Below, piece by piece: positions 13,401-15,659 of a stretch of 64,000 bases of DNA (position 1 is its first letter; each line of letters opens with the position of its first letter). The notes under the pieces were generated by a model. The model made no database searches, had not been told where the DNA came from, and saw only the letters and a program-made list of their open reading frames with translations. The position numbers and the translations under genes are program-made. The stretch is taken from positions 68,770 to 132,769 of the forward strand of contig CAZEGK010000001.1 in the NCBI GenBank assembly GCA_964512205.1, in the 5' to 3' direction. This DNA is from an uncultured bacterium. GTDB lineage: Bacteria; Chlamydiota; Chlamydiia; Chlamydiales; FEN-1388.

Positions 13401-15659
13401 AAAAATGCAAATGGCGAACTGACGCACGTAACAGACTATCGCTACAGTCCAACAGGAAAAAAAATCCGCGAAAAAAATAGGGTCTTTTTTGATGGCATCC
13501 TTGAAAGGGACTATGTAGTCTCTTACAAATATGATCTCCAAGATCGATTAATTCGACTTGTCGAAGAGCCGCAAAGCGAAGAAAAAAAAGAAACCAGTTA
13601 TACCTACGATCTTGCTGGACGCATAGAGACCATACAAAAGCCAAATGGATTGCTTTTAAAGCATAGCTATGACCCGCTGGGAAGACTCTCCTCGCTTACC
13701 TCATCTGACAAAACGATTTCCTATCGCTATAGCTACGATAGAAACAGCAACCCTCGAAAAATCGTCGATGAAGTGCACGGCATTACTACAAAACGAGTCT
13801 ACGATGCCTGGAATAGACTCATTCGCGATGGCATAGAAGATGTCTATACGATGAAAATGCGATATGATAGCCTTGGGAGAATAAAAAAAGCAGAGCTTCC
13901 TGATGGCTCATCTATAGCCTATCTCTATGATGACATGCATCTAAAGAAGATCGAGCGCTTCTCTAAAGAAAAAGGGCTTCTCTATAGCCATTGCTATACA
14001 GCCTATGATGTAGAACATAGGCCAGTTGCCTATGAGCTTATCAATAACCTTGGAACATGCACGCTCTCATGGGATAAAAAGGGAAGAAATAAGGCAATAT
14101 TTTCCCCCTACCACATCTATTCAGTCGATGCCTTGGATGCAGTCGGCAATATCACTTCGTACAGTTTTGAAGATCCCGAGGGAAAAGTTTCTGTACATAA
14201 CAGCTATGATGATCTCTACCAACTGCAAAGTGAAGAGGGCTACAAAAACCATACCTACTCTCACGACTCCCTTCACAATAGACGAAAGGTAGATGACGCT
14301 GCCTATACCCTTGATTGTCATAACAGAATCATCTCTGATGAAAATGAAACTCTCTCCTATGACAAAAATGGCAATCCCACAAGCTTTCGCAATCAATCAT
14401 ACAAATATGATGCCTTAGACAGGCTCATAGAAGTTACAGATGGGGATACAGTAACAAAGTATCTCTACGACAGCTTTAACCGCCGCATCAAAAAAAATGA
14501 TGACTTCTACATCTACCAAGACCTTCGAGAAATCGGCCTCCTTAAAAATGGAGAACTCGCTGAGCTTCGCGTCCTTGGCATAGGTAAAGCAAAAGAGATC
14601 GGTGCGCAAGTTGCGCTAGAGCTTGCAGGCAAGCTCTACTGCCCTCTCCACGACTTTAGAGGCAACATCACCCTCCTTATCGATGCAGAAACAAAAGAAA
14701 TCGCCCAAACCATCCGCTACACGGCCTTTGGCGAGGCGAAATCATCCACATCTCTATTTACCCCTTGGCAATTTGCAAGCAAACGCTACGACCCAGAAAC
14801 CGACCTCCTCTACTTCCACTCACGCTACTACGCTCCAGAGCTTGGCCGCTTCTTCACAGCCGACCCTGCAGGCTTTGCCGACGGCCCCAACCTCTACGCC
14901 TACGTCCACAATAATCCGCTCTCCCATTTTGATCTCTTCGGTCTTCTCGCCGAGCCAGATAAGTTCGATAACTCTTTCTCATTTGAAGAGCGCCTCATAA
15001 AAGAAAGTCATGCATTTGAAAGAGATTTTTTTTCGCCACAATCAAGGTGGATGTCTGTTGGAAATGAAACAGTTCCAGGCATCCATATTTGGGCTATAAA
15101 CGGTATGTTTAATTCAGAAGAAGATGCTGAAGAAAATTTTAGCTATTTGGCAGATTTGGGAAATGATGTTAAAGTACTTGGACTATACAACGCATCACAT
15201 GGGGTATGGGATATTACTGAAGGTGGTTTGCTAACAAGATTTGGTATTACCTCTTACCCTTCAAAAATGCTCGCTAAAGCCTATAATAAATTCCATAAGG
15301 AACAACCACCACATAGTAAAATCCTTCAATGCTCTCATAGTATAGGTTCTGGAATGGTGAAACGTGCCCTAGAAATTTGCGATCCTGAAGTACGCAATAG
15401 AGTAATATCTATTGCTATAGGACCGGCAATGATTATCCCACCTGAGTACTGCTATAAAAGCGATAATTACATAAGTAAATGCGATTGGGTGGGATTATTT
15501 AGCGATCCGTTCGGACAAATGATGTATCAAGATTCAATTCACTATCTTACACCGCATAAAGAAGCTAACCTTTGCTTTGACCATAACTTTACAAGTGATA
15601 CATATAACGAACCGCTCCACTACACTATAAATAACTATATAGAAAAATACAGGCAATAA
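10443..15659 (+). CDS. Rhs/YD-repeat polymorphic toxin with Sec signal peptide and lipase-like C-terminal module
   Basis: Signal peptide MNCNLIFLVFLAYSTSLFA and an Rhs-type N-terminal start (VNNVHVVDGGLYLS..PLDLVQYYN). Many YD repeats follow (YDxxGRL, YDxxNRL, YxYDxxG). The core end is RYYAPELGRFFTADPAGFADGPNLYAYVHNNPLSHFDLFGL (PxxxxDxxGL at 14916-14945). A 237-aa tail follows, containing SHSIG. Confidence 0.9.
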   Translation: MNCNLIFLVFLAYSTSLFAEEGQDALSAQPICIAREAAPCAFVNNVHVVDGGLYLSMNHMKVPGHVPLDLVQYYNNKSNYSSWFGTGMTLNYCFWIQGIGDVKSGHDYDGVMAESYGGSIISCIAKGIEEGSQKFYLDPAVIHKGFTNCGAGSISARTNLKNCYIKEKIVDDENEYYKWTCYLPDGTTRYYKRAEDRDDLVVVKEEIRRNLTRLEFDHAKRDFKQDSIREITAKGRSTFNRLEFARNNKKRKAKVKSSNGKVCRFSSFKKYGRHYIEKIESTDSPTYEFRYTKAGKYYSINRIELPDGRYLELDYDKEARVVKEKAPVGKDGEKRTIYSFDYHDDYTVVHDANQNKKIYRHHNNRISDIEEYKGHTLYRVKSYYWGKKEGLSWGKQPTGKEGNLLGYATLNHEKCATFLRYFDYDDYGNIVRETTAGNLSGNYPWAFWVDDEGRPKDQNVERYQKYYTYSKDHLLIGQSEDFGPRIEYEYKSGTDLVSAKFIKDSDKIVKREFYTYDDNGILIEKTIDDGTSPNKSELAGVSMRLVTKIVPTVIGLPQDIYEYYLDLTSKNLVSLKQTHYNYNKAGEVVEEAIFDSEGTYRYSSWYEYDHKGRLHKKKDPIGQIYTYVYDNNDNKTYEKREDAQAHTIYKYDAANRLIDSTEYHYDNTKIAQQFEYDLMGNKIRSYDRYGNITTYHYDECNRLIETILPKKSFSVKKEYDLFDNVSSETNEKHAKTSTEYTVRNKPARITYPDASVERFQYNKKGTLFKKWDKSGTRYMYHYDKFDRVTKEYVHDADGNKLLETENCYNSFHLLSSKNPRGHTTYFRYDGAGRLIEELLETPENYTKKCFSYDSLGRLSSTKHYYGKERDTFYEVAVEYDNLDRILSEKELDSTGICHSETVYEYNADGMLTRKEKAGVALINRYNSKKELIETIDEEGFRVEISYNHTFTNHKGQRTLQKVTRDGLNNLTEEYFDELGRCISILRKNANGELTHVTDYRYSPTGKKIREKNRVFFDGILERDYVVSYKYDLQDRLIRLVEEPQSEEKKETSYTYDLAGRIETIQKPNGLLLKHSYDPLGRLSSLTSSDKTISYRYSYDRNSNPRKIVDEVHGITTKRVYDAWNRLIRDGIEDVYTMKMRYDSLGRIKKAELPDGSSIAYLYDDMHLKKIERFSKEKGLLYSHCYTAYDVEHRPVAYELINNLGTCTLSWDKKGRNKAIFSPYHIYSVDALDAVGNITSYSFEDPEGKVSVHNSYDDLYQLQSEEGYKNHTYSHDSLHNRRKVDDAAYTLDCHNRIISDENETLSYDKNGNPTSFRNQSYKYDALDRLIEVTDGDTVTKYLYDSFNRRIKKNDDFYIYQDLREIGLLKNGELAELRVLGIGKAKEIGAQVALELAGKLYCPLHDFRGNITLLIDAETKEIAQTIRYTAFGEAKSSTSLFTPWQFASKRYDPETDLLYFHSRYYAPELGRFFTADPAGFADGPNLYAYVHNNPLSHFDLFGLLAEPDKFDNSFSFEERLIKESHAFERDFFSPQSRWMSVGNETVPGIHIWAINGMFNSEEDAEENFSYLADLGNDVKVLGLYNASHGVWDITEGGLLTRFGITSYPSKMLAKAYNKFHKEQPPHSKILQCSHSIGSGMVKRALEICDPEVRNRVISIAIGPAMIIPPEYCYKSDNYISKCDWVGLFSDPFGQMMYQDSIHYLTPHKEANLCFDHNFTSDTYNEPLHYTINNYIEKYRQ

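Follow-up and report, generated by a model that had tools for sequence, protein, structure and literature searches.

What does the C-terminal tip of a chlamydial Rhs protein do, and in whose cells could it act? This question is raised by a 64,000-nucleotide (nt) stretch of DNA from an uncultured member of the Chlamydiales (FEN-1388; assembly GCA_964512205.1, contig CAZEGK010000001.1, positions 68,770-132,769 of the forward strand), the whole of which is called the window here. It contains a gene for an Rhs (YD-repeat) polymorphic toxin that ends in a C-terminal module (CT) of 237 amino acids (aa), followed by two small genes for candidate immunity proteins. In this work, we computed the Rhs architecture of the carrier, the fold of the CT, the conservation of its predicted catalytic triad, the linkage of toxin and immunity genes, the export signals of the immunity family, and the co-divergence of toxin and immunity proteins. 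Sequence comparisons and a structural model suggest, with a probability of roughly 0.68, that the CT is an Rhs-delivered serine esterase/lipase which acts outside the cytoplasm and is countered by exported cognate immunity proteins.

The carrier gene and its parts are located as follows, in positions of the window:

10443..15659, + strand: Rhs/YD-repeat polymorphic toxin gene, 1738 aa plus stop codon (Pfam RHS_repeat and DUF6531; collinear with chlamydial Rhs proteins)
10443..10499, + strand: predicted Sec signal peptide, MNCNLIFLVFLAYSTSLFA / EEG (read from the sequence; hydrophobic; putative cleavage site)
14718..14945, + strand: Rhs-associated core with the terminal DPAGF-x18-DLFGL autoproteolysis motif (TIGR03696, E=5.5e-22, residues 1426-1501)
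14946..15656, + strand: C-terminal toxin module, 237 aa (AlphaFold2 model, Foldseek, 988-member family)

The RHS_repeat model matches the protein in ten stretches (E=3.9e-45) and DUF6531 matches its N-terminus (E=1.1e-5); these are the only Pfam domains found in it. DPAGF is located at residue 1474 and DLFGL forms residues 1497-1501, the whole motif spanning positions 14862-14945. The repeats, together with a core that ends in DPxG-x18-DxxGL, place the protein among the Rhs/YD-repeat toxins. Between DLFGL and the TAA stop codon lie 237 codons (14946-15656). The initial annotation, made from the letters of the window, had placed a 237-aa module after a DxxGL cleavage motif, and its coordinates were borne out by mapping of the open reading frame (ORF) and of the motif. 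The window protein can be aligned collinearly, over nearly its full length and at 27-32% identity, with about 25 Rhs proteins of chlamydiae. In related chlamydial loci with a readable junction, the DPxG-x18-DxFGL motif is present, and a comparable hydrophobic Sec-type signal peptide stands at the start of most homologues with an intact N-terminus. CT-immunity cassettes of Rhs proteins are usually marked by a drop in GC content at the junction. Against a window mean of 0.432, the Rhs core has a GC content of 0.544, the CT one of 0.373 and the first immunity gene one of 0.367; so sharp a step at the core/CT junction agrees with a CT-immunity cassette that has had its own history, apart from that of its carrier.

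What kind of protein is the CT? Searched alone, it had no match in Pfam (even at E<=1), NCBIfam or PADLOC, and a word-indexed protein homology search returned no relatives. An exhaustive phmmer search of 1.84 billion cluster representatives, in turn, gave 988 relatives at E<=1e-3, of which 460 reached E<=1e-10. In these relatives the hydrolase domain is almost always found at the extreme C-terminus, and the proteins that carry it fall into two size classes, Rhs-sized ones of 1400-2900 aa and others of 180-700 aa. Furthermore, a pattern scan of 185,579 species-representative genomes, with patterns taken from an 8-sequence alignment that miss the divergent motifs of the window itself, yielded 80 loci. 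Those with names are almost all from Chlamydiota, including Parachlamydiaceae, Waddlia, Rhabdochlamydiaceae and many metagenome-assembled genomes (MAGs), while a few of the 80 lie in bins labelled Verrucomicrobia. Several hydrolase copies per genome are common, and Rhs-sized ORFs of 1574-1988 codons occur in 26 loci, about 25 of which encode the proteins collinear with that of the window.

The fold of the CT was predicted with AlphaFold2 on a 28-sequence alignment (predicted local distance difference test, pLDDT, 89.3; predicted template-modelling score, pTM, 0.87); a single-sequence model (pLDDT 33.7) was dropped. From the N-terminal side, the model contains a strand (46-51) followed by the invariant Asn-Gly, a helix (58-71), a strand (77-81) and two helices (87-119). 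Then comes a strand (125-132) that ends in Ser132 and leads straight into a helix (133-143), which is the arrangement of a nucleophile elbow. A strand at 153-160, a strand at 171-177 followed by Asp180, a strand at 198-201, the loop with His213 and a helix at 218-236 complete the order. The model contains no lid domain. The features expected of the alpha/beta-hydrolase superfamily are recognised in it, namely a central parallel beta-sheet with helices on both sides and the strands in their standard order, a small-x-nucleophile-x-small elbow between strand 5 and helix C, and, as predicted from sequence and model, an acid after strand 7 and a histidine after strand 8 in the order nucleophile-acid-histidine. 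The domain and its predicted catalytic residues (numbered within the CT) have the following positions:

15045-15656, + strand: alpha/beta-hydrolase fold within the CT, about residues 34-237 (AlphaFold2 model)
15099..15104, + strand: Asn52-Gly53 after strand beta3, predicted oxyanion-hole loop (conservation; strand 46-51 directly before)
15339..15341, + strand: Ser132, predicted nucleophile in S-H-S-I-G (210/210 copies; elbow of strand 125-132 and helix 133-143)
15483..15485, + strand: Asp180, predicted catalytic acid in CDWVG (210/210 copies; after strand 171-177)
15582..15584, + strand: His213, predicted catalytic base in FDHNF (210/210 copies; loop between strand 198-201 and helix 218-236)

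When the model was compared with the Protein Data Bank (PDB) by Foldseek, 182 matches were obtained at E<=1e-3, and the best 50 of the 182 are all alpha/beta hydrolases (E 6e-6 to 2e-4, template-modelling (TM) scores 0.37-0.53). These best 50 include PETases/cutinases, carboxylesterases, dienelactone hydrolases and S-formylglutathione hydrolases, as well as acyl-protein thioesterase 1, a polyhydroxybutyrate depolymerase, and pancreatic and lipoprotein lipase. Sequence searches of the PDB with the protein and with the family profile remained below threshold (best E=0.13-0.45) and were used only to see which part of the CT the matches cover; such sub-threshold matches, all over the nucleophile elbow, were to pheophorbidase (E=0.45), esterase MGS0156 (E=0.33) and cutinases (E=0.43-2.6). 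According to the model, the assignment of the CT to the alpha/beta-hydrolase fold class is secure, yet with TM-scores as modest as these no particular enzyme family is indicated.

Conservation was assessed in 210 full-length copies, comprising 139 representatives, 70 copies from genome loci and the copy of the window. Ser132, Asp180, His213 and Gly53 are present in 210/210 copies, Gly134 in 208, Asn52 in 205 and His131 in 196; an alignment of 38 sequences has N52, G53, D89, S132, A141, L142, D180, H213 and T219 as its invariant columns. These residues point to a working Ser132-Asp180-His213 triad and to a predicted enzyme of the serine esterase/lipase type. The Asn52-Gly53 loop probably contributes the oxyanion hole, as the HG loop does in alpha/beta hydrolases. 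The initial annotation had picked its candidate residues by eye: an SHSIG nucleophile elbow at 15333-15347, which is located exactly there, and later Asp- and His-containing blocks, which correspond to CDWVG and FDHNF. All the strings it quoted are present, and its Ser, Asp and His are the predicted catalytic positions that are invariant throughout a large family. The structural check that it had proposed was carried out in the form of the AlphaFold model and the Foldseek comparison described above, and the result was an alpha/beta hydrolase.

A separate observation concerns cysteines. Most relatives have a Cys at CT position 130 (C-H-S-x-G) and another at position 169, each in at least 90% of the sequences of one alignment. 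The CT of the window has Cys129-Ser130 in place of Cys130 and keeps Cys169 (15330-15335 and 15450-15452). A possible disulphide between such residues would fit an extracytoplasmic enzyme.

Is the conserved fold still catalytic, or could it be an inert binding or scaffold domain? The latter role has been suggested for the DUF687 proteins that pathogenic Chlamydia encode, and the CT is related to these. Among 38 aligned relatives, 19 match Pfam PF05095 (DUF687) at E<=0.01 (best E=1.1e-16), and the individually scanned ones cover roughly positions 37-176 of the 537 of that model. A precomputed PF05095 label is also carried by 23 of 27 relatives in the indexed database, the named ones being Chlamydiae/Chlamydiales MAGs. 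The CT of the window falls below the gathering threshold of PF05095 (25 bits) and has no Pfam match. DUF687 members include CT326, CPn0066, CPn0069, CPn0381 and CPn0882, all of them predicted to be membrane proteins of the Inc type (PMC3048545). They are about 540-620 aa long and consist of an N-terminal hydrolase-like part and a C-terminal bundle of transmembrane helices (PMC11878206, PMC3048545). In a survey from 2024, DUF687 forms a cluster of alpha/beta hydrolases that lies outside the Pfam clan and whose Chlamydia members lack catalytic residues (PMC11878206). The two domains are homologous and both specific to the phylum Chlamydiota. In contrast to DUF687 proteins, with an N-terminal hydrolase-like domain, a C-terminal transmembrane bundle and reportedly no catalytic residues, the domain of the window is the C-terminal cassette of an Rhs protein, ends after the last helix of the fold, retains the full triad and has no transmembrane bundle. 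On sequence grounds it is a sub-threshold DUF687 homologue without such a bundle, and one predicted to be catalytically intact. An inert scaffold is very improbable: despite the kinship with DUF687, all 210 copies, that of the window included, keep the triad and the oxyanion Gly, which is not expected of a non-enzyme, and the DUF687-type bundle is missing. This explanation was rejected because of the invariant triad.

Has this domain been seen in toxins before? An alpha/beta-hydrolase payload of Rhs proteins was predicted in 2012; for Chlamydiota, no experimental study was found in the literature. The domain in question, Tox-ABhydrolase-2, belongs to RHS and FilH polymorphic toxins (Zhang, de Souza, Anantharaman, Iyer & Aravind 2012, Biol Direct 7:18, PMC3482391). 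Its signature consists of NG, [DE], [KR], HSxG, D and H, and chlamydiae are among the several phyla listed for it (PMC3482391). In the CT, the corresponding residues N52-G53, D89/E92, R150, H131-S132-x-G134, D180 and H213 are invariant or nearly so, and here, too, the hydrolase is found at the C-terminus of an Rhs protein in chlamydiae. The CT therefore appears to fit Tox-ABhydrolase-2, an identity drawn from the motif signature alone; no Pfam model bears this name. The immunity partner published for the domain is Imm-SUKH, and the Parachlamydia copy was described as having no immunity protein (PMC3482391). In the loci analysed here, by contrast, another, unannotated exported family follows the hydrolase gene, and 0/36 of its members match SUKH/SMI1 Pfam models, with three stray single hits only.

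What, then, are the two genes behind the toxin? Their positions are:

15661..16158, + strand: candidate cognate immunity gene 1 (ORF165), 165 aa, hydrophobic N-terminus (homologues downstream of related hydrolase genes)
16118..16762, + strand: candidate immunity gene 2 (ORF214), 214 aa (distant ORF165 paralogue; aligns along the whole family)

ORF165 starts 1 nt past the stop codon of the Rhs gene, and an alternative start of ORF214 at 16142 gives a clear signal peptide. A direct BLASTP comparison of the two proteins is not significant (E=0.068), and their kinship is seen only through the family profile. When built without the window sequences, this profile detects ORF165 at E=3.2e-29 and ORF214 at E=2.1e-9 among the 1067 ORFs of the window. 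Homologues of ORF165 were found by phmmer directly downstream of the hydrolase gene in most loci (E down to 9e-21), and the family has no Pfam match and no PDB match. Linkage was scored with the family profile at a gene spacing of -150 to +400 nt. A family member lies downstream of 61 of the 73 hydrolase genes with enough downstream sequence, always on the same strand, and all 25 assessable Rhs-linked hydrolase copies are paired with one. Two to four tandem copies are present in 19 loci, and the window has two.

Most members of this family carry the marks of export. Among 86 non-fragment members, a hydrophobic leader that ends in a lipobox is found in 40 and another hydrophobic N-terminal signal in 32; several of the remaining 14 also have such a signal, as judged by eye. 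In the 25 Rhs-linked pairs, the distance between immunity proteins tracks that between toxin domains (Mantel r=0.81). The partial correlation of toxin and immunity protein given the Rhs shell is 0.64, while that of shell and immunity protein given the toxin is 0.01, which indicates that the downstream protein travels and diverges with the CT and not with the carrier. Linkage, co-divergence and the GC drop together correspond to the arrangement of a variable C-terminal toxin followed by a candidate immunity gene, as far as sequence data can tell. We infer that ORF165 and ORF214 belong to an exported, mostly lipoprotein-type family of cognate immunity proteins. This conserved exported family appears to be the new part of the finding.

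The same pairing bears on the alternative that the CT is a host-directed effector, which we regard as unlikely. According to this explanation, the hydrolase would be released in an amoeba or animal host cell or in the inclusion, where it would act on host or inclusion-membrane lipids or on acylated host proteins (for example by thioesterase-like depalmitoylation). The downstream exported proteins would then only shield the envelope of the producer during export, or would be chaperones or secretion partners. Host-directed Rhs/Tc toxins generally need no immunity gene, whereas every one of the 25 assessable Rhs-linked copies has one beside it, and tandem arrays of 2-4 paralogues together with toxin-specific co-divergence are hallmarks of conflict between bacteria. 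Host targeting is, on the other side, consistent with the placement of the organism in Chlamydiota, as indicated by a cluster resembling cdsQ-pkn5-cdsC of the type III secretion system (T3SS), with the presence of acyl-protein thioesterase 1 among the structural matches, and with the stand-alone hydrolase copies without an immunity gene, some of which have disordered N-termini as in T3SS substrates. It was also proposed by Zhang et al. in 2012, both for the Tox-ABhydrolase-2 of chlamydiae and, more generally, for the toxins of intracellular bacteria (PMC3482391), and a permeabilisation screen for factors secreted into the cytoplasm of the host cell lists the Waddlia Rhs protein wcw_0453 among its candidates (PMC7143554).

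With regard to the substrate, the initial annotation had suggested a phospholipase-type, Tle-like effector. Type VI secretion system (T6SS) lipase effectors Tle1-4 with periplasmic Tli immunity proteins were reportedly described by Russell et al. in 2013. As in Tle-Tli pairs, the window combines a predicted serine alpha/beta-hydrolase with an adjacent candidate immunity gene whose product has a signal or lipoprotein peptide, implying action on the periplasmic side; the periplasmic or lipoprotein character of this neighbour is a sequence prediction (40/86 members with a lipobox, 32/86 with a hydrophobic signal). Unlike Tle proteins, the carrier is an Rhs protein with a Sec signal, T6SS genes, PAAR and VgrG were found neither in it nor in the neighbours examined, and the motif of the window family is S/C-H-S-x-G in place of the G-x-S-x-G of Tle. 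Membership in the Tle family was rejected, as there is no T6SS linkage among the neighbours examined and no match to DUF2235, Lipase_3 or another Tle-associated Pfam family. From the earlier suggestion, the Tle-like logic was retained, and the lipase label is used here as a hypothesis. The broader proposal of an alpha/beta-hydrolase toxin agrees with the fold, the predicted catalytic residues and the conserved exported downstream family. From among the sites of attack that had been listed, a downstream family with lipoprotein and signal peptides favours the antibacterial, periplasmic one.

Could the CT be an envelope toxin that is not a lipase? Its substrate would then be a peptidoglycan-linked ester or peptide, a lipoprotein or an acyl chain of lipopolysaccharide. 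Peptidases, thioesterases and many esterases all use the alpha/beta-hydrolase fold; the closest folds here belong to cutinase/PETase, carboxylesterase and dienelactone hydrolase and not to phospholipases, and the model is without a lid. Some relatives have weak Pfam matches to Ser_hydrolase and to the S33 aminopeptidase family (Hydrolase_4). To our knowledge, however, the characterised alpha/beta-hydrolase toxins with periplasmic immunity proteins (Tle1-4) are all lipases, and no positive pointer to any specific non-lipid substrate was found. Zhang et al. left the substrate of the domain open (PMC3482391). On balance, we consider a non-lipase activity doubtful. By analogy with Tle/Tli, an envelope lipid would be the most probable substrate, although a different ester or a peptide of the envelope is, taken together, about as likely.

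How would such a toxin work? In the mechanism that we favour, an exported esterase/lipase with its own immunity proteins, the YD-repeat shell (residues ~22-1425) would enclose the C-terminal module. The aspartyl-protease motif of the Rhs core (DPAGF-x18-DLFGL) would cut after Leu1501 and free the 237-aa module as a small, lid-less alpha/beta-hydrolase with the Ser132-Asp180-His213 triad and the Asn-Gly oxyanion loop. The two downstream exported proteins would bind and block this hydrolase outside the cytoplasm, and since the protector is exported, the freed esterase should act there as well. Its site of action would be the cell envelope (periplasm or membrane), with an ester-linked envelope lipid as the most likely substrate. 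Encapsulation, autocleavage, toxicity, inhibition by binding, the lipid substrate and the route into the target cell are the steps that we infer from the computed features. The layout of toxin and immunity genes is ordinary, and the mechanism follows an established pattern.

Several points speak against an exported antibacterial lipase. No T6SS, PAAR, VgrG or Tc partner was found in the Rhs protein or in the neighbours examined, which did not cover every small ORF of the window. Within this range, neither a PAAR/VgrG nor a TcA/TcB delivery module accompanies the toxin, and the Sec signal is the only export feature; without such a partner, there is no known route by which a Sec-exported Rhs toxin could enter another cell. 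No specific lipase family was matched, the best Foldseek matches being generic esterases and cutinases with modest TM-scores (0.43-0.53). Twelve hydrolase genes, all of them short stand-alone forms, have no immunity gene, and the N-terminus of ORF165 itself, though hydrophobic, is short and lacks both a lipobox and a clear cleavage site. Finally, Chlamydiota are obligately intracellular, and Zhang et al. argued for host-targeting toxins and found no specific link of Tox-ABhydrolase-2 to lipases (PMC3482391).

How does the window toxin compare with classical Rhs proteins? The best-known YD-shell toxins are the Rhs effectors of the T6SS and the TcB-TcC cocoon of Tc toxins, and most characterised Rhs CTs are nucleases, deaminases or ADP-ribosyltransferases. 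The window protein shares with them the YD-repeat shell, the DPxG-x18-DxxGL core, a CT of lower GC content and a downstream candidate immunity gene. It differs from them in its Sec signal peptide, in the lack of a PAAR or TcA partner, in its obligately intracellular lineage, and in a CT type that is unusually constant across about 25 chlamydial Rhs genes.

Beyond the Rhs-linked form described so far, the loci display variation of several kinds. In 25 Rhs-linked pairs (among L032-L076), the mean p-distance is 0.46 for the toxin domain, 0.55 for the Rhs shell and 0.64 for the immunity protein. The CT is thus more conserved than the shell, and much more so than the immunity protein; this is the reverse of the expected pattern, as the Rhs tip is usually hypervariable.

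A second protein type of about 500-700 aa ends in the same hydrolase (L001, L002, L005, L014, L020, L022 and L024). It has a conserved N-terminal region (in several cases with WDGR...AAQLAWIG) as well as a single hydrophobic stretch and a Pro-rich linker, both of them long, and no Pfam domain was found in the four N-terminal regions scanned. A gene of the immunity family also lies downstream of this type, which may be an alternative, membrane-anchored delivery form.

Short stand-alone hydrolase genes of about 220-390 codons have an intact C-terminal block and no downstream immunity gene (L011, L015, L019, L027, L030, L034, L037, L038, L065 and L073). Some have Sec signal peptides (the tandem copies of L034; L038) and others disordered N-termini. 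Such genes may encode versions of the enzyme that are directed at the host or serve in housekeeping.

In addition, fragmented or orphan hydrolase CTs, each with its own immunity gene, were found in L049 (5979-6573), L033 (949-1219), L078 (5478-6629), L040 and L057. The fragment of L049 lies downstream of a full Rhs gene, and some orphan CTs keep the end of the Rhs core (...FGL). This combination of orphan CT and immunity gene is the pattern left by displacement of Rhs tips through recombination.

Other neighbours in the window with domain matches include the following:

798-2093, + strand: protein with a FliN C-terminal domain (domain match)
2090-3505, + strand: Ser/Thr protein kinase (domain match)
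3562-6039, + strand: secretin (domain match)
16746-17483, - strand: 245-aa protein, RING finger (match to zf-RING_2 at E=1e-5; 26.1 bits, slightly below the cut-off of 27.3 bits)
17535-20918, - strand: 1127-aa protein with an N-terminal SWIM zinc finger and an SNF2-family helicase (domain matches)

The FliN-like, kinase and secretin genes (798-6039) stand in what we take to be the chlamydial T3SS gene order cdsQ-pkn5-cdsC, and this order, together with the distribution of homologues, places the window in Chlamydiota. The possibility that the secretin is a GspD of a type II secretion system serving the Rhs protein was rejected, because the FliN-kinase-secretin arrangement is typical of the chlamydial T3SS. 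Other neighbours examined include Der and the SNF2 helicase. Identical copies of the Rhs protein, of an alanine dehydrogenase and of ORF165 were looked up by exact sequence, and none was found in the collections searched. The gene with the RING match adjoins the immunity genes in convergent orientation and may encode a eukaryote-like E3-ligase effector. Large ORFs (411-1389 aa) without a Pfam match at the thresholds used are located at 41302-45471 (+), 55421-58108 (+), 25903-28134 (-), 29268-31280 (+), 6186-7625 (+) and 7615-8850 (-); large lineage-specific proteins are typical of environmental chlamydiae.

What could this mean for the Chlamydiota? We tentatively propose that the locus belongs to a phylum-wide, Sec-dependent Rhs toxin system of environmental Chlamydiota, with an unusually constant serine-hydrolase payload and an unrecognised lipoprotein immunity family, by which obligate intracellular bacteria may fight each other, and that the DUF687 proteins of pathogenic Chlamydia may be domesticated descendants of the toxin. 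If this is true, obligate intracellular bacteria would be engaged in such fights, for instance when they infect the same amoeba or inclusion together, and the catalytically dead, membrane-anchored, Inc-like DUF687 proteins would descend from this toxin domain. The window offers a testable enzyme-inhibitor pair: the triad of the enzyme is predicted to be intact, the putative cleavage site is defined, and two candidate immunity genes lie next to the toxin gene. The conservation of a partner family throughout the phylum contradicts earlier work, in which the chlamydial copy and the toxins of chlamydiae in general were said to have no immunity proteins, and it reopens the question of direct competition among obligate intracellular bacteria. 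The DUF687 proteins of pathogenic Chlamydia, in turn, gain a plausible active ancestor.

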